Below are positions 8,753-25,593 of a DNA stretch of 64,000 nt, piece by piece. The position numbers and the translations under genes are program-made. How positions within the stretch are numbered: the first letter of the stretch is position 1; each line of letters opens with the position of its first letter. This stretch comes from Candidatus Bathyarchaeia archaeon (GTDB taxonomy: Archaea; Thermoproteota; Bathyarchaeia; Bathyarchaeales; Bathycorpusculaceae): contig JBEKKK010000001.1 of NCBI GenBank assembly GCA_050010755.1, positions 32,001-96,000 on the forward strand. Direction: 5' to 3'. Below the pieces are notes generated by a model. That model did not search any database and was not told where the DNA came from. It saw only the letters and a program-made list of their open reading frames with translations.

Positions 8753-8778
8753 CTGCTCCAAGCACTCGGCAACCGTGA

Positions 8779-9282: not shown

Positions 9283-9377
9283 GGGCTCGTAGTCTAGCTG
9301 GCTAGGACGTCGCCCTCACACAGCTTAGTTGCTGGAGGAAGCGGCGAAGATCCCCGGTTCAAATCCGGGCGGGCCCA
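9283..9377 (+). tRNA. tRNA-Val(CAC) with 21-nt intron, best placed at 36/37
   Basis: Acceptor GGGCTCG/CGGGCCC-A, T-arm CCCGG-TTCAAAT-CCGGG, anticodon CAC at 9317-9319. Intron 9320-9340 has central helix CCTC/GAGG and hairpin CAGC/GCTG. Confidence 0.92.
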
Positions 9378-9421
9378 CTATAAGCACGAAGTTTAATATG
9401 TCCTAATTAACCATAGCGCGG

Positions 9422-9667
9422 CTATCTCGGTTCGAAAGATATCAGAGTCACTGTCTCCGTTATCCCGGGGATTCTGCGTATTTTGTCGAAAATGAATTCG
9501 TCAAGGCTCTCTTTGGTTGCAAAGGCAACTTCAACGTGTAAATCGTAGATGCCAAGGGTGGAAACTGCACTTCTAACACCGGGCAACTTCTTGACTTTTT
9601 CCATTACTTCGTCCTTTCCGGCTTCGACTTTTGCCAATACGTATGCCGTGACCAACGCATACTCCAC
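9422..9667 (-). CDS. Stand-alone Lrp/AsnC ligand-binding (RAM) domain protein
   Basis: AYVLAKV, G-x-YD, IRRIPGITETVTLI; no HTH domain. Confidence 0.85.
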   Translation of the reverse strand: MEYALVTAYVLAKVEAGKDEVMEKVKKLPGVRSAVSTLGIYDLHVEVAFATKESLDEFIFDKIRRIPGITETVTLISFEPR

Positions 9668-9703
9668 TCGAAGATGCGCGAGCTACAAGATAGTCAAATG
9701 GTT

Positions 9704-10288
9704 TTATCCGAGATGTGTCGGTGTTGTAGTCATAGCAAAGTAAAGCCAAGCGCCGGCAAATATGAATGCAGCTATTGCCCACAGCCACCTAAACCACCTG
9801 TTCTCAAGGTGCATTGCTGGAACCGTAAGTAACAACACAATTGCAGGTGCCAGGTAGAGCAAAGTGGTTTCCGTCGGGTTCGACGTGAGCTTATATTTCC
9901 ATATTGAATAAGCATCGGAGATCAGGTATAGGCCCAAGACAGCAGCGAAGTAGGTGCATGCTTGCACCCCTCTCCCGCGAAACAGCGCCGCAGCGCCCGA
10001 CAGCAGCACTAGCCCTGCAAGCGCACCAACGCCTCCGAACAAAATGTTATAGGCCTGGAGGCCTGAAGGGAAAAGGCCAAGGGTGATAGTTATGCTAGTG
10101 AGGAAGATGTAAAAGCCGGTTGCTCCCAGCGCAACTCCCAGGCCCGACGCTATGTTCTTCTGTCCTTCGTCGATTGAGTCTGTAGACGGCTTGTAACGAA
10201 GTCTGAGCGCTGCAACTCCTAGTATTACTCCGCTCGCAGCGATGCCCCACATCATGCTATCCAAATAATCTAAAGCTGGTGCGGTCAA
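9704..10288 (-). CDS. Membrane protein, DUF981-like
   Basis: About 6 TM segments; YNILFG motif. Confidence 0.6.
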   Translation of the reverse strand: MTAPALDYLDSMMWGIAASGVILGVAALRLRYKPSTDSIDEGQKNIASGLGVALGATGFYIFLTSITITLGLFPSGLQAYNILFGGVGALAGLVLLSGAAALFRGRGVQACTYFAAVLGLYLISDAYSIWKYKLTSNPTETTLLYLAPAIVLLLTVPAMHLENRWFRWLWAIAAFIFAGAWLYFAMTTTPTHLG

Positions 10289-10352
10289 TATTCATTACTC
10301 CAACCATTTTTATCTTTTCTATAACACAATCGGTATAAAAGCTTTCTGTTTA

Positions 10353-10535: not shown

Positions 10536-10664
10536 ACAGTCTTCAAATTCTCTAGCCCTCATCTTGCCCTGATATTTCTTGCATTGATAACCCACTCAGT
10601 TCCAATTTAATTCAACTTCCAAACGTACGAAAATGCCCCCCGAGACTGGGATAATCAAAGAGCC

Positions 10665-11609
10665 TTAGCGCAAGACAGACCAAAACGCTGAAAGAACATA
10701 TGCAATTACTAGTAGCACGCCGAAAAGTAAATGCACTCTTATCGTTGACACGTTTGCCGTAATAATGGATTGCGGTTTCTCGTAGTACTTCCTTGCCGTG
10801 GTGATTGCGTTTATCGCCAAAGGAAGAGTAATTAGAACGATTAGCGAGGCAAGCGGCATCAGTCTCAATACAACCATCACCGCCGTCCAAGCATAAGCTG
10901 CCATGACAATGACTCCATACAGGTCTGCTCCTTGCTTCCTCCCGACTCTCACGACGAGGGTTTTCTTACCAACCGCCTTGTCCGCAGTGTAATCTGGAAT
11001 CTCGTTGATCCACAATATTGCGGTGATAAGAAAGCCGACTGGTACAGAAGCGACTAAAGGGCCCAGAAGCAAGTTCTTGCTCTGAACGTAATAGCTACCC
11101 AAGACCATCAACGGACCGAAGTTCAGACCCACCACCAGCTCGCCGATTCCACGTGTTGCCAGCTGCGTAACGTAGAAATATCCAGATACGACGCCTATGG
11201 CGCCCAGCAGCAAGACGCCCCATCCGACAGAAACGAAGAGTACGATGCCAATGAGACCGGCCACGGCAAAAAGGCAAAGAGCTGCAAAATATGCCCTCCG
11301 CGGACTGACCAGATTCTCCAGCAAAACTCGACTCCCCCCACTTATCGGTGAAAGCCCCTCGGTGTTGATTGCGTCACAGCCGCTTCGAAAGTCAAAATAG
11401 TCATTGATGATGTTTGTCCCCAAATGCAGGCACATCGCCGCCACTAGCGCCAAGGCAAAATATGCAGGATTAAAAGCTTTGATGGCCGTCCATGCGATGA
11501 CAGCCCCCAAGGTAACGGGAATTATTGTTCCCGTCAAAAAAGGGATCCTAGCCAGTCTCGCCCAAATCATGAACGAACGACGAAACCCTTGACCTTTAGG
11601 AGTGTCCAA
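10665..11609 (-). CDS. menA: MenA-like 1,4-dihydroxy-2-naphthoate polyprenyltransferase (UbiA superfamily)
   Basis: NDYFDFRSGCD, GGSRVL, GELVVG, NEIPDYTADKAVGKKTLVVR; multi-TM. Confidence 0.85.
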   Translation of the reverse strand: MDTPKGQGFRRSFMIWARLARIPFLTGTIIPVTLGAVIAWTAIKAFNPAYFALALVAAMCLHLGTNIINDYFDFRSGCDAINTEGLSPISGGSRVLLENLVSPRRAYFAALCLFAVAGLIGIVLFVSVGWGVLLLGAIGVVSGYFYVTQLATRGIGELVVGLNFGPLMVLGSYYVQSKNLLLGPLVASVPVGFLITAILWINEIPDYTADKAVGKKTLVVRVGRKQGADLYGVIVMAAYAWTAVMVVLRLMPLASLIVLITLPLAINAITTARKYYEKPQSIITANVSTIRVHLLFGVLLVIAYVLSAFWSVLR

Positions 11610-11614
11610 TCTGG

Positions 11615-12649
11615 CTAGCCCTCGAATTCGTCGACATAGCCAGAAAACCGCATTAGATAATTCTTGAACTTGGAATCCCTGACGTCTTTCAAACTCGAAT
11701 GAGATTTCTCTATATATTCTGCTATTTTTCCCTTACAATAACTAAAAGCCCCGGACTCTTCCATCCTGTCTTTCATTCTTTCCATATCAGCCAAGGTGAC
11801 TTTTCTATTTCCAAAGTTCCTCTTCATCAAATCCCTCGCCGCCTCGTTTCCGTGTTCATACACGTGAAGGAATGGGAGAGTGACGTTGCCGTTTCTGAGG
11901 TCGCGTGAAATCTGATTCTTGCCCAACAAATCGTCAAGATCATCATTGAGCTGATATGCCATTCCGAAATACTCACCAAACTTGGCCAAGGCTTCAACTT
12001 CCGAAGGCGTGCCTCCAGCCGCCAAGGCCCCGCAACGGGTCGCACATCTGAAGAGAGAAGCGGATTTCTTCTCTATCTTTGTGAAATACTGCTGCTCAGT
12101 TGCATCATCCAGAGAAAGAACAGCATCGATGTATTCGCCGTCTGAGAGTTCTAGCCCGCCGTCGGATAGGATTTTCATTATTTTCGGTCCATAGTCCGTG
12201 GCAAGATTTACGGACAAGGCGATTAGAGCATCTCCTGCTAAGATTGCCCCTTTTGTGAACCATTTTGAATACAGAGTCTTCATTCCGCGGCGGCAGGTGT
12301 CCTGATCTATTATGTCGTCGTGGACCAGTGTGGCAGTATGTAAGAGTTCGAATGACAAAGCGAGATTGGTCACTTTCTTCGGGTCTCCGCCGACGCTCTG
12401 AGCACTCAGCACTGTTAGTATTGGTCTCAGTCTTTTTCCATTGGATAACAATGCAAATTCCAGCAAGGGACGAAGGCTGACATCAGAAATCTTCGAGAGC
12501 AGCTTTTCAAGCTCAGACTCGATTGAACGTTTCATGCCAAATACGTATGAATGAAAATCCTCACTAGTGCAGCTGACCAATTGGCTCCTGGTTCTCATGA
12601 GCAAATCATTTCCTCGGCTGTTGTAATCAGCAAAAGTTGGGTGCAGCAA
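11615..12649 (-). CDS. trans-polyprenyl diphosphate synthase, probably longer than C20
   Basis: GKRLRP, FARM DDIID..RRG, KS/A motif, YQLNDDLDD; Ala at position -5 to FARM. The true start may be downstream of 12649. Confidence 0.88.
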   Translation of the reverse strand: MLHPTFADYNSRGNDLLMRTRSQLVSCTSEDFHSYVFGMKRSIESELEKLLSKISDVSLRPLLEFALLSNGKRLRPILTVLSAQSVGGDPKKVTNLALSFELLHTATLVHDDIIDQDTCRRGMKTLYSKWFTKGAILAGDALIALSVNLATDYGPKIMKILSDGGLELSDGEYIDAVLSLDDATEQQYFTKIEKKSASLFRCATRCGALAAGGTPSEVEALAKFGEYFGMAYQLNDDLDDLLGKNQISRDLRNGNVTLPFLHVYEHGNEAARDLMKRNFGNRKVTLADMERMKDRMEESGAFSYCKGKIAEYIEKSHSSLKDVRDSKFKNYLMRFSGYVDEFEG

Positions 12650-12745
12650 GATATAATGCTTTTTGTTATGACGATTAGGTTGATAATAATAATGAAATGC
12701 ACAAATAATCTATAAATAACAGGCCAGATAGAGGTGTTGACGTGA

Positions 12746-13465
12746 GTGAAAACATTGAATGAATCCGTCCTCCACCGAACCCTAGGCAGCCCATCCAGAG
12801 TGCAAATACTGCGGCTACTCTATCGAGGACCACTGAGCGTGGAAGAAATGGCAACGAAATTGGATCTGCAGCCTATAACTATAAGGCATCATTTGCAGTC
12901 CTTGATGGAAGCAGGGATAGTTGAATGCCACGAAGAGAGGTCAGGAACAGCAGGGCGGCCGAAAGCATACTACACCGTTGCCAAAACAGCTCCATCTACT
13001 AGTTTTCCCAAAAGACAATATCAGATTCTATCAGAATCTCTAATCAACAGCATGATAAAAGAATTTGGAATAAACAAGACGAAGGCGCTGCTCAAGAAAA
13101 TCGGCACAAACATGGGAGAATTCGCCGTAAAAACGCTTGAGTCCGAGCACAACATAAAATCTTGGTCCCCGAAGGATTACGAGACGTACATGATTCGTGG
13201 ATATTTTGAACAAGAGGGAGCGGAGCCTGAAATGCTTGAAGCGACTGGCAATAAAATTGTATACAGGCTTCACAACTGCCTTTTCCAAGAGCTGTCGGTG
13301 AAGATGCCCGAGATAATGTGTGATGTTCTTCATGAAAGCTTTCACGAGGGCGTTATCAAAGCAATTGGCAAGGACTTGAAAATAGACCGCGCTACTTGCA
13401 TGGGACACGGCGACCCTTATTGTGAACACGTTTGCGTGTGGCCACGCGCACCAAGAAAACCGTAG
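12746..13465 (+). CDS. ArsR-type HTH plus V4R-like sensor transcriptional regulator
   Basis: HTH with GRP..Y wing; HNCLF, C-x3-H, and TCMGHGDPYCE V4R motif. Confidence 0.85.
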   Translation: MKTLNESVLHRTLGSPSRVQILRLLYRGPLSVEEMATKLDLQPITIRHHLQSLMEAGIVECHEERSGTAGRPKAYYTVAKTAPSTSFPKRQYQILSESLINSMIKEFGINKTKALLKKIGTNMGEFAVKTLESEHNIKSWSPKDYETYMIRGYFEQEGAEPEMLEATGNKIVYRLHNCLFQELSVKMPEIMCDVLHESFHEGVIKAIGKDLKIDRATCMGHGDPYCEHVCVWPRAPRKP

Positions 13466-13771
13466 ATTGCAATAGCACTCAAATGGGAAAATCTGGAGAC
13501 AGCACGCGCGCTCGTTAGCTTAGGACGGAAAATGAACTACTTTCCCACGGTTTCAAGCATAATCTCGACGGTTTTCGCTCTTCCACTTTCATGGTGTATC
13601 GCAAAAGAACAAAGAGGCATCAGCCAATATCGGCAAGTTCCTTGTTCATGTTCTTCATTACAACTCTGACGCGCTGATGCCCTTGACTTGGGAGCAGAGG
13701 TTGAAGGCAGGGAATTTAGGTGAAAGTGAAGTAGCGCGCGGGCGCACTTGCTTGGAAGGTTCTGAATTCCG

Positions 13772-14296
13772 TCAGAATTCTGATAGGCGCTTCCAGTTGC
13801 TCCACTTTCGTATTATGAGCGCATCCACACTGTGGTTACCATATTTCGCGCTTCTCTCGGCTATTATCATCGCGGCGAAAACGAAAGCGTAAACTGCTGC
13901 AGTTCCAATATCCGTCGAGCCAGGTCCATAAGGCCCGCCAAATCCTTCAGGAACAGCCCATATCATCAGACTGTACAGTGCACCGACAATATACACTGTC
14001 TTTCTCAAGAAACCCACGATTAATACAAGCCCGAGCAGAATCTCGATCACCCCTATTGAATAGTAGACAGCGGTGGGTTGGGAAGTTACCGAGCTCAGCC
14101 AGAAACTGTACCAAGGATGAAGCCATGAAGGTGCGCCCTGCCCAGCTGTCTGAACCATGTTCACTATATCTGATGGTTGCAGGTAGGTGAATTTTATCAA
14201 CCCATCTATCAACCACACTATTCCGAAAGCAATTCTAAATGCAGTAAACGCATTCAATGATTCTGTTAGCGCACGCACGCGCTTGCGTATTTTCAT
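13772..14296 (-). CDS. DoxX/DoxD-like membrane protein
   Basis: RIAFGIVWLIDGLIKF, EILLGLVLIVG, EGFGGPY..GSTDIG; 4 TM. Confidence 0.7.
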   Translation of the reverse strand: MKIRKRVRALTESLNAFTAFRIAFGIVWLIDGLIKFTYLQPSDIVNMVQTAGQGAPSWLHPWYSFWLSSVTSQPTAVYYSIGVIEILLGLVLIVGFLRKTVYIVGALYSLMIWAVPEGFGGPYGPGSTDIGTAAVYAFVFAAMIIAERSAKYGNHSVDALIIRKWSNWKRLSEF

Positions 14297-14331
14297 GTTT
14301 AAATTCCACCAATGTTTACAAATTTTATATA

Positions 14332-14347
14332 ATGATTATAATAATTA
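14332..14347. promoter_or_regulatory. Candidate operator shared with the hdrA2 promoter
   Basis: ATGATTATAATAATTA is identical to 23480-23495 and abuts a minus-strand TTTTAAG. Confidence 0.55.
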
Positions 14348-14545
14348 CTTAAAACTTTGCACAATATGCTCGCGCAAATGACTCTTGAATGCGATACAGA
14401 AAACGCTTCATATCTTGACATCTGACTTAATCTCCAAACCTAGAGACCTTACTATCAAGGCGCCGAACTGGAAGACCAGAACCAGAGCACTTCTTGGACG
14501 GATGATAAGCTGCTGACAAAAATCCTACAGCAAACAAGTCGCCAA

Positions 14546-15448
14546 TCATGCTTTGGCTACAGCCGGAATTGGAGTTTTTATCTTGTCAAGAATCTTTTTC
14601 AGAGACACCACGTTCCTGCCCAGACCAAGCTCTTTTGGGTCCAACCCGAACGCGATCCCCATGAGTTGCGTGAAGTAGAGGATAGGCATGTCAATCTTCA
14701 AGTCATATCGACCTTCTACATCTTCTTGTTTAGCGTCAAGATTAAAGTGACACATAGGACAAGGAGTAACTATGCAGTCAGCCCCGATGGCCTTCGCGCT
14801 CAACAGCACGTCCTTGGTCATCTCAAGCATGACACTCTCATCTGTCAGAGCTAATGAAGCCCCACAACATCGGGTCTTGTCAGGGTAATCTAGGCTTTGA
14901 GCCCCCACGGCTTCGATAATTCTATCCATGGATTTCGGGTGTTCAGGGTCATCGAAACTTCTTACCTGCGGAGGCCTCACGAGCAAACAGCCATAGTAGG
15001 GTGCAACCTTCAAACCCTTCAGCGGCACTTTAACGTTCTCGGCAATCTTTGACGGCCCAACGTCATTTATCAGCACGTCGAGATAGTGTCTGACTTTGAC
15101 TTCGCCAGTGAACTTCAATCCTGCATCGTTGATTATTTTGTCAACTGCCCCTTTGAGGTTAGGATCTTCGTGAAGCATTTTGCTCGCTCTTGACAGGGTA
15201 AAGAAGCAGGCGCTGCAGAGGGTCACTATCTCCATGTTCATGGCTTCCGCGATCGAAAAGTTTCGGGCAGACAGAGACAGGGACAATTCTGGATTGTAAG
15301 CGTGGACAGCGTCAATGGATCCGCAACAGTTCCAATCGGGTATTTCCACGAGCTCTATCCCGAGGACCTTGTTCACGGCCATGCATGACATTCCATATTC
15401 GTGTGCAGACGCTTCTACCGAGCATCCTGGAAAGTATGCGTATTTCAT
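14546..15448 (-). CDS. hdrB: Heterodisulfide reductase subunit B
   Basis: Two CCG domains: YFPGC..WNCCG..CSAC and YYGC..RCCG..CPMC. Confidence 0.93.
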   Translation of the reverse strand: MKYAYFPGCSVEASAHEYGMSCMAVNKVLGIELVEIPDWNCCGSIDAVHAYNPELSLSLSARNFSIAEAMNMEIVTLCSACFFTLSRASKMLHEDPNLKGAVDKIINDAGLKFTGEVKVRHYLDVLINDVGPSKIAENVKVPLKGLKVAPYYGCLLVRPPQVRSFDDPEHPKSMDRIIEAVGAQSLDYPDKTRCCGASLALTDESVMLEMTKDVLLSAKAIGADCIVTPCPMCHFNLDAKQEDVEGRYDLKIDMPILYFTQLMGIAFGLDPKELGLGRNVVSLKKILDKIKTPIPAVAKA

Positions 15449-16050
15449 TTCTGTACCTCCTCTTTTTTCTGAGCACTTTTGAAAATGGCTTCTATGTCCT
15501 TTGAATGCTTTACTCTGGATGGGGTAACTTTCACTTTTCCTTTTCGAAACATCTCCACCCCGAAGAGCATGTTGTTCAAGACCTCTTTGGGACTGGTTTT
15601 CTTCATGAGCTTGACCTGTAGCTGTGGCTCGTGCATTCTGCCATACTTACCCACGATTTCAGTGAAGGCCTTGTGAAACTTCGGTTTAGTCGGAATCTTG
15701 GCCGGAACCTTGTTCTCCATTGCCATGTTCTTCAACGATGACATTATGAGTGGAATGTCGATTCCTCTCGGACATCGTGAGGTGCAAGTGTAGCACGAAG
15801 CACAAATCCATATGGTTGAGCTTGAAAGAACATCATCTTTCAAACCCAATTGCACCATCTTTATGATCTGCATCGGACTGTAATCCATAGCGAACCTAGC
15901 GTGGCAAGAGCCTGCGCAGATTCCACATTGAATACAATCGAGTATCCTTTTTCCAGCTGCAGTTTTCTTCATCTCCACCAGAAATGTGGAGTCCGCTTTC
16001 TGATTCATTATTGTGTTTTTCTGCACTTGTTCCACGCTAACTACCTCCAA
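15445..16050 (-). CDS. hdrC: Heterodisulfide reductase subunit C
   Basis: CIQCGICAGSC and IWICASCYTCTSRCP [4Fe-4S] motifs. Confidence 0.92.
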   Translation of the reverse strand: MEVVSVEQVQKNTIMNQKADSTFLVEMKKTAAGKRILDCIQCGICAGSCHARFAMDYSPMQIIKMVQLGLKDDVLSSSTIWICASCYTCTSRCPRGIDIPLIMSSLKNMAMENKVPAKIPTKPKFHKAFTEIVGKYGRMHEPQLQVKLMKKTSPKEVLNNMLFGVEMFRKGKVKVTPSRVKHSKDIEAIFKSAQKKEEVQK

Positions 16051-18442
16051 GATGTTCGGCGATTTTCTTCCTTTTCTCTTCTGGCAAGCGTCCCAGAGTG
16101 GACAGTCTTTGACTCAAAGTTTCGAAAAGGTTGACCACCTTGTCATACTGAGGCAAAGTTGTCGTGGTTGAAGCCAGTCTTAGCGATTCAACTCCGTACT
16201 TGCCCATTTCCTTCTTCAACTGGATTACATGATCCCTGATAAGATCTTCTCTGAATGGACTGTCGTCGCCTTCTATGAAAACAATTCCGTCGGCACCTGC
16301 TGCAAAGGCTTGTAACACGTGTTTGGCTCCCACTCGTCCTGCACTCGGCACGCTGATGATTCTAACATCTGGTGTATAGTTCACTCTCGTCTGCCCAGCT
16401 AGATCGGCTGAGCCATACGCAGTTGTCTTCTCAAGAAAAGCGAGAATTCTCGGCTCATCTCCCTCTCCTTGGCAGGTCAGTTGAATCTGAGCTGTCAATT
16501 GCTCGTTCGTCAAGTTTTTGAGATCAATCGCTTCAGTGGGACACTTGGGCACACATATGCCGCAACCAATGCAAAGAATCGAGTCAATTACGACGCCTTT
16601 GCGTTTGGCACTTATTGCCTTCGTCGGACAGACGGGTATGCACAAACCGCACGCGTTACATTTCTCAGGATTTATGTACGCCTTTTCCGGTGAAACAGCG
16701 ATTTCACCTTTGCCCAGGAATGTAGCCACTTTAGATGCGCATGCCATGGACTCAATCGTGGTCTCTCTAATGTCTTTGGGTCCAACAGCGCATCCCGCCA
16801 AGTAAATGCCTTCCATCTTTGTGTCCACCGGTCTCAATTTGTGATGCCTTTCCAAAAGGAAACCGTCTGGTCCAACGTCTATTCCCAGCTTTTTGGCCAG
16901 TTCATGGGAACCATAATTGGGAAGCAGAGCGGGGCTAAGAACCACCATATCGAACGTTTCCTCAATCTGTCTACCTAGAACGGTGTCTTCAGCTCTTAAA
17001 GTTAGACTGTCTCCGTTTGGAAAGACCTCGGCTGCCCTGCCTCGAATAAACTTGACCCCAAGTTCTCTTGCGTGAGAGTAGAACTCTTCATACCCTTTTC
17101 CATGCGCCCTCAGGTCTGTGTAGAATATCCAAGGTTCGGCTTCTGGGTTTGACTTAAGAAGCAACAGAGAATGCTTAATGGCGTTCATGCAGCCTATTTT
17201 GCAGCAGTAGTTTATTCCTTTGTCCATTCGGCTGCCGACACAGAGTATGAAGGCGACTTTCTTTGGCATCTTTCCGTTTGAGGGTAGATGTAGACCCTGT
17301 AGCATGAGACGCTCAAACTGCAGATTGGTTACAATGTCAGGGTGTAGACCGAAACTGTATGGGCTGAAAACGTCGTGTCCTTCAAAGACGTCTTTTGACA
17401 GCGTTGGATCAAGTTGCTGATAGCCCGTGCAAGCGATGATGGCGCCGACGTTTAATTCAACTATTTTCTCTTTTTGATCAAACGCTATGGCCCTGCCCTT
17501 GCAAAATCGCTCACAAACCCTGCAAACACCTTTGTTGAAAAAGAGACACGCATCTTTGTCTATCAAGTAACTGCTAGGAACTGCCTGCTTGAAAGGTAAG
17601 TAAATTGCCTTTTCCTGTTGCAGTCCTTCTTCAAACTTGCTCGCCTTCTTGACTGGGCAGACTCTCGCACACTCGCCGCACGATATACATTTTTCCGAGT
17701 CAACGAATCGCGGCCTGACACGTACTTGAACTTTGTAGTTACCGGGAGAACCTTCAATCGAAAAGGGTTCCGCCATCGTGATAACTTCGATGTTCGGATG
17801 CTGAGAAGCGTAGACCATTTTCGGGGTTAGAATACATTGGGAACAGTCCAGCGTTGGAAAGGTCTTACTCAGTTGGGACATGTGGCCACCGATACTGGGA
17901 TTTCTTTCCACCAAGTGAACCTTGTATCCCTTGTCAGCCAATTCAATAGAAGTCAATACGCCAGCGATGCCGCCGCCAATTACAAGAACGTCCTCCGTGA
18001 GGGGGAGGCTCTTTGTTTCCAAGGGCTCGAGGAAACGAGCACGTCCCACTAACCCACTGATAAGAGCAATTGCTTTATTGGTTGCCGCCGCGTGGTCTTT
18101 ATCATGAACCCAGCTGCATTGTTCGCGAATGTTGGCCATATCCAGCAAGTAAGGATTGAGCCCGGCTGATCTGGCTGCTTCCCTGAAAGTCTCTAGATGC
18201 ATTCGAGGTGAGCATGAAGCTACGATAACTCGATTTAGTCCAAGCTCTTTGATATCTTTCTTTATCATGTCCTGTCCAGGTTTACTGCACATATAATCAT
18301 AATTCTCGACAATCTTCACCCCATCCAGTTGGGAAATAGCTTCTTTGACCTTCGTCACTTGCACGGTGTCGCTTATGTTACCGCCGCAGTGGCAAATGAA
18401 AACTCCAATCGAAGCATTTTGTTGCACAAATACACCGACCAT
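16037..18442 (-). CDS. hdrA: HdrA fused to a degenerate (Cys-less) MvhD-like domain
   Basis: CHCG, CSP, REQCSW, GGGIAG, KTFPTLDC, ferredoxin inserts, CVGSR..YCCKIGC. The C-terminal ADLAG..GRV domain lacks Cys. Confidence 0.92.
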   Translation of the reverse strand: MVGVFVQQNASIGVFICHCGGNISDTVQVTKVKEAISQLDGVKIVENYDYMCSKPGQDMIKKDIKELGLNRVIVASCSPRMHLETFREAARSAGLNPYLLDMANIREQCSWVHDKDHAAATNKAIALISGLVGRARFLEPLETKSLPLTEDVLVIGGGIAGVLTSIELADKGYKVHLVERNPSIGGHMSQLSKTFPTLDCSQCILTPKMVYASQHPNIEVITMAEPFSIEGSPGNYKVQVRVRPRFVDSEKCISCGECARVCPVKKASKFEEGLQQEKAIYLPFKQAVPSSYLIDKDACLFFNKGVCRVCERFCKGRAIAFDQKEKIVELNVGAIIACTGYQQLDPTLSKDVFEGHDVFSPYSFGLHPDIVTNLQFERLMLQGLHLPSNGKMPKKVAFILCVGSRMDKGINYCCKIGCMNAIKHSLLLLKSNPEAEPWIFYTDLRAHGKGYEEFYSHARELGVKFIRGRAAEVFPNGDSLTLRAEDTVLGRQIEETFDMVVLSPALLPNYGSHELAKKLGIDVGPDGFLLERHHKLRPVDTKMEGIYLAGCAVGPKDIRETTIESMACASKVATFLGKGEIAVSPEKAYINPEKCNACGLCIPVCPTKAISAKRKGVVIDSILCIGCGICVPKCPTEAIDLKNLTNEQLTAQIQLTCQGEGDEPRILAFLEKTTAYGSADLAGQTRVNYTPDVRIISVPSAGRVGAKHVLQAFAAGADGIVFIEGDDSPFREDLIRDHVIQLKKEMGKYGVESLRLASTTTTLPQYDKVVNLFETLSQRLSTLGRLPEEKRKKIAEHLGGS

Positions 18443-18600
18443 GTTAATTAGGAGATATTCTCCAGCAACACTACCAACAGAAGAATGGAGATTTATAAAG
18501 ATTTCATTTCTATATTATATTTCATAACATTCATCTAAAGTATTTGGCGCTTATGTGCAGTCCTGTTATTCTGTGCTTTTCCGTTCATTTTTCTCGAGAT

Positions 18601-19395
18601 TTATCTTGTTCCGACCACTATTACGACATATCCATCTGTATGGAAGAACGTGTCTACGCCTGTCAGAACACATCTGACATCCCTGAACTTTGCTTGATTG
18701 AACAGTTCTACAACTTCCTTCGCTGACGGTGTGTAAAGCATTCTGTCTAAAAATATTCTCTTAAACCATTCAGACTCTGGACCCCCAACAACCACTCTTC
18801 CTCTAGGCTTGACAACTCTCGCCATCTCTTGCAGAGCCCTCTCTGGATTGGGGAAATATTCCAGCGCTCCGAACGAGATTATTGCACCAAATGTTTCATT
18901 CCTGAAGGGCAGGTTTTCTGCATCACCTCTAGAGAGGTTAACCACCACCTTTTTGGGGTTAAGCTTTCTCGCCGCTTTCCTCAGCTGTTGGGAGGTCATG
19001 TCAATTCCATCCACTTCGCCGATTTCCAGCCTCTTCAACACAGCCTCAGTTGTGTAGCCCGTGCCGCAGCCAACATCAAGCACGCGTGAACCTTGATGGA
19101 TGTGCGCCAGTTCTGCGACATCATTTCGCATCGTGTCTGTATAGAAGAAGACGTTCAATCTGTCATACACCTTGGACAAAACTCTGTAGAAGATCATAGC
19201 TCGTCTCTTGTCAACCAGAAACGCGCCCAATTGTTTTCCGACGCGCCTCTTGCTTTGAAATCTCTCTTCCGCCAAAATGAGTATGCAAGCCCCCAGACCT
19301 ACCGTGGCGCTTAACAAGGTTGCCCAACCAAACAGCAAAGAGTTCCGAGTTCTTCTCAGCATATTCGACAGTCCCCAGCAGCTTATGCTAAACAT
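18601..19395 (-). CDS. Class I SAM methyltransferase, UbiE/MenG-like
   Basis: YDRLN, VLDVGCGTG, GDAENLPF, EMARVVKPRG; hydrophobic N-terminal segment. Confidence 0.75.
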   Translation of the reverse strand: MFSISCWGLSNMLRRTRNSLLFGWATLLSATVGLGACILILAEERFQSKRRVGKQLGAFLVDKRRAMIFYRVLSKVYDRLNVFFYTDTMRNDVAELAHIHQGSRVLDVGCGTGYTTEAVLKRLEIGEVDGIDMTSQQLRKAARKLNPKKVVVNLSRGDAENLPFRNETFGAIISFGALEYFPNPERALQEMARVVKPRGRVVVGGPESEWFKRIFLDRMLYTPSAKEVVELFNQAKFRDVRCVLTGVDTFFHTDGYVVIVVGTR

Positions 19396-19429
19396 CTTGT
19401 GGGGAACTCATAAAAAAGGCTCGCAAGCG

Positions 19430-20338
19430 TCATTTGCCTAACAACGATCTAGCCAAGAGCAGTAAATTGCTTGGTTTTTCTCTCAATCTTCTAAGACTAT
19501 AGGGCAACCAGTTTTGGCCGTACGGTATGTACTCAGTGACTCTGTACCCGTTATTCAAAAGTTCACGCTTAAGATCGTCTCTGATGCCCTTCAGAAAAGC
19601 GAACTCGAAGTTTTTGGAGTATTCCTTACTCATTCTCATGGCCTCGTGAACCAGTCTGTCATCGTGAGTTGCAACAGAAAATAGGCTCGAGTTTTCTTTG
19701 AACAGATGTTCCATTAACTCCGCATAGTTCTTGTCTATCTCTTTTCTTGATTTGTATGCTATGGTCGCGGGTTCATTGTAGGCTCCTTTGACCAACCTAA
19801 TTTTTCCGCCGATTCTGAGCAATTCTTCAATGTCGTTCTCGCTTCTTCTCAGGTAGGCCTGGATGCATATTCCGATGTTTTTGCTCGCAGAAAACAGGGT
19901 GTTATAAATGTTGATAGTGGCGTCGGTAAACTCCGAGCCCTCCATGTCTATCCACACAAATTTTCTGAGCTTCCCAGCGTGACAAACTATCTCAACCATG
20001 TTTTTCTTGCAGTAATCTTGGTCAGCTTTGAGGCCAAGCTGAGTGAGCTTTACGGAGATACACCCCAAAATTCCATTGTGTTGCAATAGGTCGAGGATAT
20101 GCTCGTACTCTTTCAGCGCCTCTTCAACTTCGCTCGCAGTCTCAACTTCCTCCCCTAGGTAGTTCAATATAACACTGAAACCTTTGGCATTCGCAAGCGT
20201 GGAATAGCTAATTGCATCTGAAATCCTCTTGCCAGCTATCCAGTTCTTAGCCAACGGATAAGCTAGAAAAGAGACCAAAGGCACGTTCGTCATCTCAACC
20301 ACTTTATTCACGAACCTATTCACGGCTGAGCTTGACAC
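19430..20338 (-). CDS. Monofunctional proline dehydrogenase
   Basis: SVKLTQLG, IDME, QAYL, RLVKGAY, ATHD, YIPYG, RRLRE. Confidence 0.92.
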   Translation of the reverse strand: MSSSAVNRFVNKVVEMTNVPLVSFLAYPLAKNWIAGKRISDAISYSTLANAKGFSVILNYLGEEVETASEVEEALKEYEHILDLLQHNGILGCISVKLTQLGLKADQDYCKKNMVEIVCHAGKLRKFVWIDMEGSEFTDATINIYNTLFSASKNIGICIQAYLRRSENDIEELLRIGGKIRLVKGAYNEPATIAYKSRKEIDKNYAELMEHLFKENSSLFSVATHDDRLVHEAMRMSKEYSKNFEFAFLKGIRDDLKRELLNNGYRVTEYIPYGQNWLPYSLRRLREKPSNLLLLARSLLGK

Positions 20339-20418
20339 TCAATTGTAGAAATCCAGCTTAAATCTTTGCACAGAACACACGATTTGATTCTTGACAGAGT
20401 TATGAGCCGATGATTTGC

Positions 20419-20931
20419 TCACGTCGTCTGGCTCTTCGAGTTGTTCGTAGCCATCCTTCTTACAAGCTCTCTCAGCTGCGTGTCTTCGCCATGAACAAGT
20501 AAGAAGCCTTCATTTTGAACAATACAGGAAAGATGCAATTCGTCAGCAAACTTTTTTGACTCGTCGACTGACACAGTCGAAGGGTTGATACGAATCCATT
20601 TTGCGCCTCGCGGAACATTCGGAAGCAATTTTGGTTTCTCTTTTGTTTCCTCTGGGGCGTTTTTCGCTTGATCCAGCCGTGTAAACCATTTCTCAACGTA
20701 TTCAGGTTCAAAGACCATTTGTCCTTTAGACATGATATAGGATTCCACGTTGAAGAAGCATTTGTCAATCTCCTGACTGATATCGGCTTGACCGGTACCG
20801 GCTTCTGAGACGTGGACCAAGGTCTTTGCTGATTGCAGTTCTGTCATAGTATCAGATGGAATAAGGATTCCCTTTTCTTTCAAGTCAACGATCATTTCTT
20901 CAACAACTTTCCATGCGTCCAAATATCCCAT
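20419..20931 (-). CDS. DUF2096-like archaeal protein
   Basis: N-terminal W-x-V-x-E..DL..KG..IP and C-terminal PRG.KWIR pattern. Confidence 0.6.
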   Translation of the reverse strand: MGYLDAWKVVEEMIVDLKEKGILIPSDTMTELQSAKTLVHVSEAGTGQADISQEIDKCFFNVESYIMSKGQMVFEPEYVEKWFTRLDQAKNAPEETKEKPKLLPNVPRGAKWIRINPSTVSVDESKKFADELHLSCIVQNEGFLLVHGEDTQLRELVRRMATNNSKSQTT

Positions 20932-20934
20932 GGC

Positions 20935-23451
20935 TCATTCCTCCTCAACTGAAGCTACAACCAGTGGAGTAACATGTGTCTTGCTAGGAACTTGCGCGGT
21001 GGAGGTCTGTTGCACGATTGGCTCTGCCTTTTTCTTCAACAAATTCTCCAATATTGGACGCAGTTTCTGATTCTCTGCTTTGATTCTCTCCTTGCCTAAG
21101 GCGACCATCTGCCCGGTGGTTTGTTTGACGATCTCAGCAAACTTGACGCCCTCGGCAGCGGAAACATACTCTACGCGAAGTCTCTCTGAGCTTAACCCGA
21201 GCTTCTCAAGCATCTTCCCCAAGGCGTCCATTCTGGATTTCATCCTTCCGTTTCCGCTTATGTAGTGGCAATCGTAGGGTAGATGGCATGCTCCAACCAT
21301 GACCATGCCAGCGCCAAGCCTGAAAGCTTCAAGGACGAAGTCTCGATCAACTCTTCCCGAACACATCACACGAACAGGTCTTATCGTTGGTGGATACTCG
21401 ATTCTGCTCGTCCCTGCAAGGTCTGCTCCTGCATAACTGCACCAGTTACACAAGAACGCCAGAATCTTGTCTTCCGGATTTGTCTCCAGAGCTGCTCTGA
21501 TCTGGGCCAGTATCTGATCGTCCGTAAAGTGAAGTTGAGTCATTGCATTTGCGGGACATTCCGCAACGCACGTCCCGCACCCATGGCACGTGGCAGGTAT
21601 TACTTGAGCTGGTTGCTTTTCCTCGATTTTTATTGATCTGTGGGGGCATCTTTCTGCACAAATGCCACACTTAGCTGAAACATTTCTGCACTTGAGTGGG
21701 TCTACCACAGAAACTATAGGTTCGATCTTCCAAGTAGTCTTAGAGATTACAGTTGCAGCCCTTGAGGCTGCCCCACTGCCTTGCGAAACGCTGTACGGGA
21801 TGTCCTTTAATCCCTGACACGCACCCGCAAAGAATATCCCATCGGTGGGCGCATCCATTGGTTTGAGCTTGGGGTGGCTCTCCATGAAAAAGCCATCTGT
21901 TCCCCGGGTTAGACCTAGTATCCGCGCAATTTCCTCGGTACCTTTCTTGGGTATGGCGGCTGTTGCGAGAACAACCATCTCGGACTCAACCTCTATGGGT
22001 TGCCCCAGCATCATGTCCTCAGAGTGTAAAATCAAGTTGCGAGTCTCAGGGACTTCAGTAATTCGGCTTACGCGTCCGCGAACAAAGGTTACGCCAAGCT
22101 CTCTTGCGCGCTGATAGAATTCTTCAAAACCCTTGAAATTGCTCCGCATATCCATGTAGAAAATGTAGACTTCAACATCTTCCTTATACTTCTCTTTGAG
22201 CTGAATCGCGTGTTTCAAAGTGTACATGCAACAGAAGTTTGAACAATATGGATATTTCTTTACGTCACGCGAACCGACGCACTGAATGAACGACATGGTG
22301 TGGGGTTTCTTTCCATCGGAAGCCCTGATAACCTTTCCTCCTGTCGGACCCGCCGCGAGTATGAGTCTCTCAAACTCCATAGACGTGAGCACGTTTGCAT
22401 ATTTACCGTAGCCCAAAAGCGGATTATCAAACGGGAGGTATAAGTCATAACCAGTCGCTACAATTATCGCACCGACTTCGATCTCGACTTCTTCTGGTTT
22501 CTGCTCGAAATTTATGGCCTGTCTTGCTCCACAAGCATCAACGCACTTGTAGCATTCGATGCAGTAATCCCTGTTTATGGTGTAGGTCAGTGGAACCGCT
22601 TGGTCGAAAGGAACGGATATTGCCTTTCTAACGCCTAAGTTCTGGTCCCATTCATTCGGATATTCGATTGGACAAACTTCCTTGCACTCGCCACATCCAG
22701 TACAGTTGTGAGCGATCACGTAGCGCGGGTTTTTCCGAATTTTGACTTTAAAATTACCTACGAACCCGTCTACGCTCAGCAAGTCCGCATAGTCTATTAT
22801 TTCAATATTAGGATGCCTTTTCACATCAACCATCTTCGGGCCTTCAATGCATATGCTGCAATCGAGAGTCGGAAAGGTTTTGTCTAGCTGCGCCATGTGT
22901 CCTCCTATGCTTTCACCTTTCTCGAGCAGGTACACCTTGAAGCCCATTTCGGCCAAGTCAAGCGAGGCATTCATTCCAGCTATGCCGCCCCCTATAATCA
23001 ACGCTTTGTTCGTTACCGGGACCTCTATCTTCTGAAGAGGCGCTAACAGTCTCACCTTCGCGACGGCCATTTTTATCAAATCTTTGGCTTTATCCGTCGC
23101 AGCTTCGGGAGTGCTGGGGTGACACCACGATGCAAATTCACGGATATTTGCCATTTCAAAGAGAAACGGGTTCAAGCCGACCTCTGAAACCGTTCTCCGA
23201 AACGTAGCCTCGTGCATGCGAGGCGAGCACGCTGCCACGACAACACGATTGAGCCTATGTGCTTTAACGGCCTTTTTGATTTCTTCCTGTCCAGGATCGG
23301 CGCACGTGTACCGGTTATCTTTCACATAGACAACGTCTGGCAGAGTTCCCGCAAACTCAAGAAGTTTTTGAATGTTCAGCACTCCGGCTATGTTTAGACC
23401 GCAGTGACAAACGAAAACCCCTACCCTCGGCTTTTCAACTTCCTTTTCCAT
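20935..23451 (-). CDS. hdrA: HdrA-MvhD fusion (intact [2Fe-2S] ligands)
   Basis: CHCG, GGGIAG, KTFPTLDC, CVGSR..YCSNFCC; C-terminal LCNWCSY, MCSGR, GACH..DCHY. Likely start is the ATG at 23451. Confidence 0.93.
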   Translation of the reverse strand: MEKEVEKPRVGVFVCHCGLNIAGVLNIQKLLEFAGTLPDVVYVKDNRYTCADPGQEEIKKAVKAHRLNRVVVAACSPRMHEATFRRTVSEVGLNPFLFEMANIREFASWCHPSTPEAATDKAKDLIKMAVAKVRLLAPLQKIEVPVTNKALIIGGGIAGMNASLDLAEMGFKVYLLEKGESIGGHMAQLDKTFPTLDCSICIEGPKMVDVKRHPNIEIIDYADLLSVDGFVGNFKVKIRKNPRYVIAHNCTGCGECKEVCPIEYPNEWDQNLGVRKAISVPFDQAVPLTYTINRDYCIECYKCVDACGARQAINFEQKPEEVEIEVGAIIVATGYDLYLPFDNPLLGYGKYANVLTSMEFERLILAAGPTGGKVIRASDGKKPHTMSFIQCVGSRDVKKYPYCSNFCCMYTLKHAIQLKEKYKEDVEVYIFYMDMRSNFKGFEEFYQRARELGVTFVRGRVSRITEVPETRNLILHSEDMMLGQPIEVESEMVVLATAAIPKKGTEEIARILGLTRGTDGFFMESHPKLKPMDAPTDGIFFAGACQGLKDIPYSVSQGSGAASRAATVISKTTWKIEPIVSVVDPLKCRNVSAKCGICAERCPHRSIKIEEKQPAQVIPATCHGCGTCVAECPANAMTQLHFTDDQILAQIRAALETNPEDKILAFLCNWCSYAGADLAGTSRIEYPPTIRPVRVMCSGRVDRDFVLEAFRLGAGMVMVGACHLPYDCHYISGNGRMKSRMDALGKMLEKLGLSSERLRVEYVSAAEGVKFAEIVKQTTGQMVALGKERIKAENQKLRPILENLLKKKAEPIVQQTSTAQVPSKTHVTPLVVASVEEE

Positions 23452-23478
23452 GGTCTGGATACGAATCGCCCCCCACGT

Positions 23479-23500
23479 TATGATTATAATAATTATCATA
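23479..23500. promoter_or_regulatory. Palindromic candidate operator upstream of hdrA2
   Basis: TATGAT-TATAATAATT-ATCATA, just downstream of a minus-strand TTAATATA. Confidence 0.6.
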
Positions 23501-23856
23501 AAAAGTATATTAATCTTCCTGACAGGCAACCGCATTTCACACCTTAACCTCGAATGGTTCTTTGGAGCCTCTTGGTGACAGAAGAAAAACTCTCTTGAAC
23601 GGAAATCTTATATTGATTTGTATCATATCAATAATATTAAGGTGCGTCATGCTGAGAACTTTCGCCTCCTTTACTTTGCAAACACAATTTTTTGACATGC
23701 ATGACGCATCTCAACAATTCCAAACGAGCCCATACGCACTTTCCGAATTTCCCGCGCGCGTTATCGTTAGCGGTTATGCGGTTTTTTTGTGGTTGAGAAC
23801 AGAGCGTTCTACCCCGTTTCTCAAGTTCCAAGAGATTATTTGGATGACCAAAGGGC

Positions 23857-25041
23857 ATGACGGCTGTTGAGGGGCAAAAGGAGATTTCTCGTTACCGCTG
23901 GCTAGTGCTGTTTGCGTCCCTGTTAGCTTTCATGATGTATGGTTTTGCTCTTCAGTCAGTGCCTCCTTTGCTGCAGCAGTTCAAAATCATCTTCGGCGTA
24001 AACGACGCGACGGCAGGGCTCCTCATGTCCATAGTCGTTATTCCAGGAATTGTTCTGGCGTTACCAGCCGGCGTATTAATTGATAGGCATGGTTTCCACA
24101 AAATCGGGTTCCTGTCCGTTTTGACAATTGCAGCCGGCAGCCTATTGATGGCAATCTCTCAGAGCTTCTTTTGGGCACTCTTTGCCAGATTCATTGTGGG
24201 CTTCGGCGGCGGTTTGATCTCCGTTGGCACGCCATCGATTGTTCCCCAATGGTTCGAACGCAGAGAGATGGGAAAAGCCATGGGAGTTTACGCGGTGGGC
24301 ATGCCCGCAGCCACGACGGCGGCGTTCTTTGCAGCGCCCGTCTTGGCGCAGAGTTTTGGTTGGCAGTCGCCGTTTTACACTACAGTTGTTATTTCGTTGA
24401 TTTCGGCGGCGTTTTTCTGGGCAACTGTGAGAGACGGTCCGTTGAAGAGTCAGGCAACCGTTGCCAAGTTGTCTGAGGCTGGGCAGGTTTTCCGTATCGG
24501 CGAGGTTTGGAAGGTGAGTCTTGTTTGGATGTTTTTCAACATGGTTGCCATCGGCTTCCTCACATGGGCGCCCGAATTGTTCGTCACGTTTAGAGGGTTG
24601 ATGCCCTTGTCGGCCAGCATTCTCGCGAGTTTAATCATGATTGCAAACTTCTTTTTCGTTCCCTTTTACGGGTGGGCTTCCGACAGAGTGGGCAGACGCA
24701 AACCCTTCATAATCGCAGGACCCGTCGCTATGGCGTTGAGCCTTTACGCCATCTCCTATGCAACGGGCATTTTCCTGCCAGTTTCCATCTTTATTCTTGG
24801 AGCTTCAGCAGGGGCGGTCCCGCCGATTGTGATGGCGATTACGGGGCAGACTTTGCCTCCGAAATTGGCGGGCATGGGTTTTGGCGTCGTTACGTTCTCG
24901 CAGAACATCGGCATCACGCTGACTGCTCCTATAATTGGGTACTTCATACAGGTTACGGGTTCTTTGCCTCTGACTTTTTTAGGCATGTCCGTTTTCGCCT
25001 TTTGCGGGGCTGCAGTAGCCTTAACGGCTCGGACAAGATAG
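23857..25041 (+). CDS. MFS transporter
   Basis: 12 TM; motif A GVLIDRHG and GWASDRVGRR. Confidence 0.9.
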   Translation: MTAVEGQKEISRYRWLVLFASLLAFMMYGFALQSVPPLLQQFKIIFGVNDATAGLLMSIVVIPGIVLALPAGVLIDRHGFHKIGFLSVLTIAAGSLLMAISQSFFWALFARFIVGFGGGLISVGTPSIVPQWFERREMGKAMGVYAVGMPAATTAAFFAAPVLAQSFGWQSPFYTTVVISLISAAFFWATVRDGPLKSQATVAKLSEAGQVFRIGEVWKVSLVWMFFNMVAIGFLTWAPELFVTFRGLMPLSASILASLIMIANFFFVPFYGWASDRVGRRKPFIIAGPVAMALSLYAISYATGIFLPVSIFILGASAGAVPPIVMAITGQTLPPKLAGMGFGVVTFSQNIGITLTAPIIGYFIQVTGSLPLTFLGMSVFAFCGAAVALTARTR

Positions 25042-25593
25042 CGTAACCTCTTCCCCAGAAATGATACGTTTGATCTTGATAATCAAGGCGTGGTTGATTC
25101 CAGCGTAGTTCTCTTCCTAGCGCGCGCCATGATCTTTCAAGAACCCAGCTTCGAAAGGATTCTTCCAATCTGGTCATCACGTTTCCTTAGTTATGGACGT
25201 TGAACCTCGCGTAGACAGTTCAAGCTGTTCGCCGAAACCCTCTTGACATAAACGTTCTTAATGACAATGCTGTCACCTAATTTCAAGTCTCTCGCGAAAT
25301 CCGCGGAGCGCACGCGGAGACTACTTCGTCCAGTGTCTTCAATTATGAACAGAGATTCGTTCAGAGGTGGTCCTCCGTGGAGAAAGGGTGGCGGTACTTG
25401 AACCTATTTGGGCATTTGAGACGGCAGCCCTAAACCAGTTGGCCAAGACAAAGAGAATGCTGGTCATAGGATATTTGAAGCAAGGGGCTCGAACCCATTT
25501 GGGTCTAAGTCCGGGCAGGCCCTCAAGTGTTTTCTTGTTGAACGTGCAAACGATAAGATTTATTAAATATTAATATTTAATATACGAACTCGG

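Follow-up and report, generated by a model that had tools for sequence, protein, structure and literature searches.

Several described systems resemble the locus reported here, a ~16-kb insertion in the genome of a peat archaeon (Candidatus Bathyarchaeia) that combines genes for quinone assembly, heterodisulfide reductase (Hdr) and proline dehydrogenase (ProDH). Streptococcus agalactiae reportedly carries MenA and a prenyl synthase without ring genes and salvages 1,4-dihydroxy-2-naphthoate (DHNA). The HdrA2B2C2 complex of Methanosarcina acetivorans contains an HdrA fused to MvhD and uses F420H2 and ferredoxin. Proteins with CCG motifs also work with membrane carriers, as in HdrDE with methanophenazine and in DsrMK/Hme and QmoABC with menaquinol; SdhE of type E succinate:quinone reductase and the Etf:menaquinone FeS oxidoreductase of syntrophs are further examples. 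ProDH enzymes of the PutA type, finally, hand electrons to membrane quinones.

The locus lies in a 64,000-nt stretch of assembly GCA_050010755.1 (contig JBEKKK010000001.1, positions 32,001 to 96,000, forward strand), hereafter the window, in whose coordinates all positions are given unless another contig is named. The genome is 93.46% complete in 8 contigs, and the organism was detected in peat and wetland metagenomes. The island, as we call the insertion, spans from a small RAM-domain gene at 9422 to a major facilitator superfamily (MFS) gene ending at 25041, and is apparently an accessory module of Bathyarchaeia that was horizontally acquired as a unit at the 3′ end of a tRNA gene. We lean, if only modestly, towards reading it as a mobile unit that makes a membrane quinone by prenylating a head group and that links this quinone to ProDH and a dedicated Hdr set.

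Gene content of the island

The genes on which the argument turns are the following.

10665..11609 (-), predicted MenA/UBIAD1-type aromatic prenyltransferase (Pfam UbiA, 108 bits; NCBIfam MenA models)
11615..12649 (-), trans-polyprenyl diphosphate synthase, IspB-like (Pfam, 182.5 bits; NCBIfam)
12746..13465 (+), ArsR-type winged-helix regulator with a Cys-rich, putative V4R-type sensor (Pfam; fold search)
14546..15448 (-), HdrB with both CCG motifs intact (Pfam; NCBIfam)
15445..16050 (-), HdrC with two 4Fe-4S motifs (Pfam; NCBIfam)
16037..18442 (-), HdrA fused to MvhD (Pfam; NCBIfam HdrA2-type model, 853 bits)
19430..20338 (-), monofunctional PutA-type ProDH (Pfam Pro_dh, 120.7 bits against a cut-off of 27)
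20419..20931 (-), DUF2096 protein, between ProDH and the second HdrA and 3 nt downstream of the latter (Pfam)
20935..23535 (-), second HdrA fused to MvhD (Pfam; NCBIfam HdrA2-type model, 1063 bits)

The HdrA proteins at 16037-18442 and 20935-23535 are here called HdrA1 and HdrA2, respectively; the NCBIfam "HdrA2-type" model is a separate name. All island genes lie on the minus strand except the regulator and the MFS gene. Every gene that an earlier note had listed from the letters of the window was recovered in its place with Pfam and NCBIfam; that list had missed the MvhD domain of the first HdrA and did not mention the DUF2096 gene (20419-20931).

The best NCBIfam match of the prenyltransferase was the MenA model NF004749 (170 bits, E 6.8e-50). 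MenA models as a group scored from E 1e-22 to 7e-50, whereas models of digeranylgeranylglyceryl phosphate (DGGGP) synthase reached E 3.4e-9 at best. The residues of both Asp-rich motifs (N66, N69, D73, D79; N202, D206, D210) are invariant in 24 homologues, the sole PDB match by sequence was UBIAD1, and the nearest named homologues come from Candidatus Bathyarchaeia. The genome holds two UbiA-family genes, of which the second is probably a lipid enzyme. Judged by profile matches and tree, the island protein belongs with MenA/UBIAD1 and not with the DGGGP synthases, in keeping with the reading given in the earlier note. The IspB-like gene lies 5 nt upstream of the UbiA gene; in an alignment, small residues precede the first DDxxD motif of its product, which we take to be the pattern of long-chain prenyl synthases.

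No gene for the ring of a naphthoquinone accompanies this pair. In line with the earlier note, none of the 51 scanned ORFs of the window matched a men, mqn or hydrogenase family. Family searches of the whole genome, a check that the note had proposed for the ring genes, found no MqnA/D, MqnC, MenD, chorismate-binding enzyme or chorismate synthase; the MenB model gave two crotonase-like matches only, both well below cut-off. No supply of DHNA via the men or futalosine pathway was thus seen in the same genome (93.46% complete). Since ring genes and chorismate synthase are absent, the head group would have to be salvaged or come from an unrecognised route, and not from a known chorismate-based one. 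In a class sample of 401 genomes, MenA-like genes (called at E ≤ 1e-20) were present in 129, MqnA/D in 2 and MenB above cut-off in 3. The lack of a known ring route is a feature of nearly all of the class sample, not just of this genome.

The island encodes the parts of an HdrABC complex. HdrA is a flavoprotein that contains Fe-S domains, the MvhD (FlpD) domain occurs on both HdrA proteins, and HdrC has two 4Fe-4S motifs. HdrB could be aligned over its full length to the methanogen protein 5odc_B with all CCG-motif cysteines present, and these cysteines are invariant in 13 HdrB orthologues. HdrB scored 216 bits on the SdhE model of methylmenaquinol:fumarate reductase compared to 246 on the HdrB model, and HdrC also matched the QmoC model. 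The genome has three HdrBC sets, the island set and two others. One (L168, L186; G000:C1:1049500-1059408) adjoins an NfnB-like gene, MvhD, a 1021-aa fused HdrA and the large subunit of a NiFe hydrogenase; the other (L169; G000:C1:262500-270500) adjoins acyl-CoA dehydrogenase and the alpha and beta subunits of electron-transfer flavoprotein (ETF). Given these neighbours, the genes adjoining each set plausibly name its redox partner. The usual hydrogenase donor is present in the organism, attached to a different Hdr set. The earlier claim that the island's HdrABC lacks its donor module was overstated, since MvhD is present on both HdrA proteins, an FrhB-like gene follows hdrB in seven relatives and a hydrogenase stands beside another Hdr set.

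A gene resembling P5C (pyrroline-5-carboxylate) dehydrogenase, which would complete proline oxidation, is located elsewhere in the genome. A predicted complex of ProDH with the C-terminal part of HdrA2 (residues 600-866) gave no answer, with a score of 0.00 against a mark of 0.32 and no controls run, and is evidence in neither direction.

Insertion at a tRNA gene

The boundaries of the island are marked by two features.

9283..9378 (+), intron-bearing tRNA, left boundary (ARAGORN; Rfam tRNA, 55 bits)
25420..25527 (+), degenerate tRNA-like copy, right boundary (~14-nt imperfect repeat with the tRNA 3′ end)

Relative to congeners, the insertion occupies window ~9379-25527 and adjoins the intron-bearing tRNA. 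A DNA search of four same-genus genomes found the site empty in two of them (G004:C6 and G003:C7), where a block corresponding to 8777-9378, with the tRNA at its end, abuts DNA of window ~25510-25528 onward; the junction in G004 was confirmed by alignment. The locus therefore has the hallmarks of a tRNA island, namely a site that is empty in close relatives and a repeat of the tRNA 3′ end, short and imperfect, at the far end. The tRNA-like copy at 25420-25527 was not recognised by the Rfam tRNA model. The region 25045-25600 contained short ORFs only, and no integrase-like ORF was seen there by eye, without a family scan. None of the four congeners has a MenA-like gene, and their best HdrB proteins are 33-40% identical to the island HdrB, compared to 40% and 35% for the two other HdrB paralogues of its own genome. 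Because the congeners match at paralogue level only, the Hdr set must have arrived with the insertion. The whole stretch, right junction included, was also covered at full identity by an independent peat DNA run.

Three observations concern the surroundings of the site. In a third congener (G001:C9:89658-92804), ~1.7 kb of other DNA lies between matches to the left and right flanks, and the tRNA site may be an insertion hotspot. Two tandem DUF72 genes (7020-8752) are located just left of the tRNA; their G004 homologue is on another contig, which indicates poor synteny around the site among congeners. Inside the right boundary, a 70-aa stop-to-stop frame (25191-25403, minus strand) resembles, by eye, a fragment of an AbrB/SpoVT-type antitoxin.

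Conservation among Bathyarchaeia

For 20 of the best UbiA matches, the flanking DNA, as far as 10 kb either way, was searched with the island proteins. Six of the 20 loci (L052-L056 and L058; numbered families f1, f6, f7 and f34) carried island-type hdr genes along with IspB, the ArsR regulator or both. In a seventh (L062), UbiA is fused to PNPOx and adjoins an HdrA paralogue and ETF; the remaining 13 had no Hdr. The core that recurs across several families consists of DUF981, prenyl synthase, the MenA-like enzyme, the ArsR regulator and HdrA(MvhD)-HdrC-HdrB.

A ProDH search of named genome records returned seven loci. Two of these (L074 and L075) repeat nearly the whole order, HdrA2-DUF2096-ProDH-HdrA1-HdrC-HdrB-ArsR (opposite strand)-IspB-UbiA-DUF981-RAM, at 65-92% amino acid identity and with ProDH in the same position; the other five, from Micrarchaeota and Nitrososphaeraceae, carried no cluster genes. 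DUF2096 is next to HdrA2 in L074, L075 and L113, and an Atlas search with this protein returned DUF2096 clusters only. L075 belongs to a Bathyarchaeota chromosome. The L074 contig is labelled as a bacterial (Acidiferrales) metagenome-assembled genome and yet carries the archaeal cluster at 65-92% amino acid identity; it was probably mis-binned, with transfer as a possibility. The proposal that quinone-assembly and Hdr genes are co-conserved is thus upheld, with the same genes in the same order in other genomes and beyond chance, and so is the inclusion of ProDH in the cluster. The remark that no such arrangement was known in this lineage no longer applies, as the arrangement recurs in Bathyarchaeia genomes.

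Metagenomes scanned with aligned UbiA homologues yielded 80 loci, one of them the window's own DNA. Hdr stood beside UbiA in 7 of the other 79, which is a lower bound because many of the contigs are short. In a quick IQ-TREE analysis of 104 UbiA proteins, with the genome's second UbiA as the root, the 17 Hdr-linked rows fell into several clades; well-supported branches forced at least four changes of the Hdr-linked label, and none of 500 label shuffles was as tightly clustered as the label itself. One clade of 41 rows, mostly metagenome loci plus some f35 genomes, was without Hdr. MenA genes that adjoin MenB (L170-L172) nested within the tree as a long branch.

The two genes are also linked across genomes. 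With a threshold of E ≤ 1e-85 (51-80% identity), island-type HdrB was present in 12 of the 400 other genomes, and MenA-like genes occurred in 9 of these 12 as opposed to 119 of the 388 others (Fisher one-sided p = 0.0024, for related genomes that are not independent). HdrB and the MenA-like gene were ≤13 kb apart in six of the nine genomes that have both. In G400 they were separated by 130 kb, and IspB, two ArsR genes, an FrhB-like gene, hdr and two PNPOx genes were still together. Wherever Hdr adjoins UbiA, it belongs to a single orthologue group (49-92% identical, compared to 35-40% for paralogues).

The neighbours of the core in relatives are predicted to act in quinone biosynthesis and in electron transfer linked to the membrane or to F420. 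L055 has a true UbiE along with genes resembling geranylgeranyl reductase and PNPOx, and L058 has an SQR-like flavoprotein. An FrhB-like F420-dehydrogenase subunit directly follows hdrB in L054, L056, L081, L116, L178, L179 and L180, and a multihaem cytochrome c and Ccm system stand beside the core in L052, L087 and L176. In the window itself, a gene for CofE (F420-0:gamma-glutamyl ligase) was noted at 48353-49141 (minus strand), from which coenzyme F420 is probably made by the organism.

Variants of the cluster were noted as well. Island-type HdrA1CB adjoins CcmE/C/F and a multihaem cytochrome c in L176 (G025:C58) and L052 (G238:C31), and no MenA-like gene was found in genome G025. Three genomes have this HdrB without a MenA-like gene, and in two of them hdrB contains one in-frame TAG (G025:C58:7495-8376 and G317:C57:2678-3565), which may reflect gene decay, recoding or sequencing error. 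A PNPOx-like flavin/F420 domain is fused to the MenA-like prenyltransferase in L062 (9407-10948), P0098, P0099, P0101, P0113 and P0119; in L055 and L180, PNPOx occurs as a gene of its own next to the cluster.

Regulator, accessory genes and transcription

The regulator is transcribed divergently from IspB-UbiA. In Pfam its sensor domain matched ATC_hydrolase (E 1.4e-7), MetOD1 (E 4e-4) and, below the cut-off, V4R (E 0.014; 15.9 bits versus 31); it contains four invariant Cys and conserved His residues. A structural model (pLDDT 83.3) resembled the phenol-sensor domains of PoxR, DmpR and MopR as well as Bet3 in Foldseek (E 2e-5 to 1e-3), and the sensor is accordingly modelled as a V4R-type fold. 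The V4R sensor proposed earlier is hence matched in its fold, that of the aromatic sensors, and departs from it in its Pfam label, ATC_hydrolase.

The remaining genes of the island are listed below.

9422..9667 (-), stand-alone Lrp/AsnC ligand-binding (RAM) protein of 81 aa (Pfam AsnC_trans_reg, E 6.2e-15)
9704..10288 (-), DUF981 six-helix membrane protein with a UreI/SatP-like channel fold (Pfam, E 4e-24)
13772..14296 (-), DoxX-family membrane protein (Pfam DoxX, 27.7 bits, weak; DoxD, 21.5 bits)
18601..19395 (-), class I SAM methyltransferase (Pfam PF01209, partial; NCBIfam)
23857..25041 (+), MFS transporter, organic-anion or aromatic-acid type (Pfam MFS_1, 169.6 bits)

The DUF981 model (pLDDT 90.2; Foldseek E 1.3e-3) was superimposed with VIA-align 2 on the urea channel UreI (3ux4; Z 17.8, rmsd 2.8 Å over 164 residues) and on SatP (5ys3; Z 15.8). 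A designed six-helix barrel scored Z 14.2 against the same model, so the match to channels is partly generic. DUF981 adjoins UbiA/IspB in L055, L056, L058, L074, L075, L081, L082, L083, L085 and L116. A role of this protein as a haem or thiol redox anchor was rejected, as it has no Cys pair and its two conserved His lie at opposite ends of one helix in the model. RAM-protein homologues are found in the clusters of L054, L055, L074, L075, L082 and L083. All NCBIfam subfamily matches of the MFS transporter were below their cut-offs.

Two genes that the earlier note had counted as members of the cluster proved peculiar to this genome's version of it. The DoxX gene is absent from L074 and L075. 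On a contig from a peat RNA library, derived from a relative that is 90-95% identical, the end of the regulator gene is joined to hdrB with 175 other bases between them (window 13454-14550), which implies that the relative's cluster has no DoxX. The methyltransferase had been named UbiE/MenG, and relatives lack it at this position. It scored 77.8 on TIGR01934 (cut-off 158.35), at model positions 5-141 of 223 only, and 62.5 bits on PF01209 (positions 8-151 of 233); with the UbiE of L075 it shares 29% identity over 141 residues. The clusters of L074 and L075 end in a full-length UbiE (PF01209, 148-152 bits) and have neither the methyltransferase of the window nor its DoxX. On this comparison, the local enzyme is not orthologous to the cluster UbiE. 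It belongs to a broad family of ~253 aa whose JGI automatic labels are UbiE or MPBQ/MSBQ methyltransferase; as the homologues have 253 aa, its true start is probably 11 codons further in.

A shared operator was sought in the ArsR-IspB intergenic region of five clusters, where the sole conserved element resembled the TATA-box region, and no common motif was seen by eye upstream of the other island genes. Assembled contigs of one RNA run, 90-95% identical and from a relative, covered RAM/DUF981, ArsR, HdrB, HdrC, HdrA1 and HdrA2; cover was low over most of IspB-UbiA and nil on the methyltransferase, ProDH, most of DoxX and the MFS gene. Because such contigs show neither level nor absence of expression and DNA may have been in the library, they were not used as evidence for co-expression. 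The window is archaeal: among its other products are RNase P p30, ribosomal protein L15e and a prepilin peptidase of archaeal type.

Discussion

The analysis shows which genes are present, that they form an insertion, that their order is conserved in relatives, that island-type HdrB and MenA-like genes are linked across genomes and that known ring pathways are missing. On this basis we propose that the prenyl synthase and the MenA/UBIAD1-type enzyme, here with a non-orthologous methyltransferase, would attach an isoprenoid tail to an aromatic head group that is either salvaged or made by an unrecognised route. Candidates for importing this head group are the MFS transporter and DUF981, with its channel-like fold; the V4R-type regulator is a candidate sensor, of aromatic or redox type. 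The product would be a membrane quinone, most simply a (demethyl)menaquinone-like naphthoquinone, and may serve as the electron acceptor of ProDH. HdrA(MvhD)-HdrC-HdrB and HdrA2 would connect the quinone to the cytoplasmic ferredoxin or F420 pool, possibly by direct transfer between Hdr and quinone. By their redox potentials, F420H2 could reduce ferredoxin and menaquinone by bifurcation, and electrons from proline could reach menaquinone but not ferredoxin without such coupling. A more specific proposal, which we put forward as doubtful, is that HdrA(MvhD)-HdrC-HdrB uses a membrane quinone with a salvaged aromatic head group as its high-potential partner instead of CoM-S-S-CoB, either bifurcating electrons from F420H2 (through FrhB in relatives) or, in reverse, lifting electrons of ProDH-derived quinol with ferredoxin. 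If true, HdrABC would gain a substrate in non-methanogenic archaea, and a new kind of quinone-linked bifurcation would have been found.

A number of observations weigh against a quinone-linked module. The genome has no NuoH-type complex, tblastn with the proteins of relatives found no homologue of Ccm, multihaem cytochrome, FrhB-like or PNPOx proteins in it, and no route for re-oxidation of quinol is visible there; a full-length UbiE was likewise missing from the genome, both by family search and by tblastn with the UbiE of L075. HdrB retains every cysteine of the methanogen heterodisulfide site and resembles an ordinary disulfide reductase. No subunit that would bind quinone or anchor Hdr in the membrane was identified, DUF981 being channel-like and DoxX being confined to this genome. 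Several proteins fall below the cut-offs of the models that they match best or that define their families: HdrB (246 versus 345), HdrC (83.5 versus 160) and HdrA (853 and 1063 versus 1100) on NCBIfam models curated for the CoB-CoM enzymes, the prenyltransferase on equivalog models (170 versus 277 for NF004749 and 97.4 versus 102.15 for TIGR00751), and ProDH on the Thermus-type equivalog (215 versus 500). The link between the two gene sets is facultative, as 119 of 128 MenA-bearing genomes are without island-type HdrB and 3 of 12 HdrB genomes are without MenA. Pfam detected no integrase or mobility gene among the island ORFs. Intergenic gaps of 80-376 nt contain TATA-like boxes, identified by eye, which suggests at least five transcription units in the locus; the co-regulated locus proposed earlier would thus comprise several units and not one operon.

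The same genes have been weighed under three other explanations. In one, the locus is a redox-stress island in which Hdr would be a thiol-disulfide reductase and the quinone a membrane antioxidant or thiol oxidant, the genes being grouped by a redox-sensing, MsvR-like regulator and not by electron transfer. The regulator has the architecture of MsvR, a winged helix-turn-helix (wHTH) joined to a V4R-type domain that is rich in Cys, four of them invariant, and has conserved His, and HdrB is of the canonical disulfide-reducing type. DoxX proteins participate in mycobacterial thiol homeostasis, and the peat and wetland soils in whose metagenomes the organism occurs are assumed to swing between oxic and anoxic states. 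The MsvR model, however, matches the HTH part only (44.5 bits versus a cut-off of 220), ProDH is no stress enzyme, and in relatives the same Hdr stands beside genes of energy metabolism (FrhB-like, c-type cytochrome, SQR-like and ETF). We find this explanation rather improbable. That the genes are a mosaic of unrelated neighbours, held together by a shared island and by common descent or hitch-hiking without functional coupling, appears less probable still. The several promoters seen by eye, the accessory genes that vary between versions (DoxX, methyltransferase, FrhB, SQR-like, Ccm) and the many MenA-bearing genomes without this Hdr would all fit a mosaic. Against it, the adjacency recurs in at least six numbered families in varied gene orders and orientations, the UbiA tree requires its four or more label changes with no shuffle as clustered, and the Hdr beside UbiA is always of the same orthologue group, well apart from the paralogues.

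The third alternative retains the electron transfer and changes the product, which would be another prenylated redox carrier (phenazine- or benzoquinone-like, with a head group from an unrecognised pathway or from lignin aromatics), with Hdr acting like HdrDE with methanophenazine. A MenA-like gene in 129 of 401 genomes with almost no DHNA pathway in the sample is an odd breadth for pure salvage, and the PNPOx-UbiA fusions and adjacent PNPOx genes suggest modification of a head group. UbiA and UbiE genes of Methanosarcina are suspected of methanophenazine synthesis by an unknown pathway (PMC6315138), and a UbiA-type phenazine prenyltransferase is described (PMC4044012). The prenyltransferase of the island is nevertheless nearest to MenA/UBIAD1, and the cluster showed no set of hydroxylases or decarboxylases. 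Moreover, the known bacterial phenazine and benzoquinone head groups are derived from chorismate, and this genome has no chorismate synthase. Such a carrier is unlikely in our estimation.

Under the reading that we favour, a module linking a membrane quinone to ProDH and Hdr, the locus bears on two questions. The conservation of HdrABC/MvhD in archaea without methyl-coenzyme M reductase is called "puzzling" in one report (PMC10667645). For the role of HdrABC/MvhD in such archaea, a quinone is a concrete and testable candidate partner: a dedicated Hdr set travels with quinone-assembly genes and, in relatives, is also found beside F420-dehydrogenase-like and/or cytochrome c genes. In addition, a third of the sampled Bathyarchaeia have a MenA-type enzyme without a known substrate route, which points to cross-feeding of head groups in peat and sediment or to an unrecognised head-group pathway. 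Full-text literature searches, subscription journals and supplements aside, found no paper describing a MenA-Hdr cluster in Bathyarchaeia and none on the class-wide mismatch between MenA and the ring pathways.

Comparison with known systems

The components are of known kinds, namely a salvage-type partial menaquinone pathway, an MvhD-fused HdrA2-type complex, CCG proteins that work with membrane carriers, and V4R sensors. Like a partial pathway that depends on DHNA salvage, the island has a MenA-type enzyme and a polyprenyl synthase, has no men or mqn ring genes and would need an external head group. It differs from that of S. agalactiae in being archaeal and class-wide (129/401) and in its association with a V4R-type regulator, a channel-like DUF981 protein and an Hdr set. 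As in HdrA2B2C2 of M. acetivorans, both HdrA proteins score best on the HdrA2 model and are fused to MvhD, the module includes no hydrogenase, and the clusters of seven relatives add an FrhB-like gene; unlike in that complex, the neighbours are quinone-assembly genes and ProDH, and the scores remain below the model cut-off. The near-equal score of HdrB on the SdhE model (216 versus 246 bits) and the QmoC match of HdrC recall the CCG membrane-carrier systems. Those systems, however, contact their carrier via a membrane subunit or a membrane-bound CCG protein. Here none was identified, and the complex belongs to the soluble, bifurcating HdrABC type. The predicted sensor shares a V4R-type fold with a Cys-rich site with XylR, DmpR, PoxR, MopR and MsvR and, as in MsvR, is joined to a wHTH; in contrast to XylR, DmpR, PoxR and MopR, it is carried by an ArsR-type wHTH and not by an NtrC-type activator, and its Pfam family is ATC_hydrolase. 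What appears to be new is the conserved mobile combination of these parts, together with the class-wide mismatch between MenA and the ring pathways.

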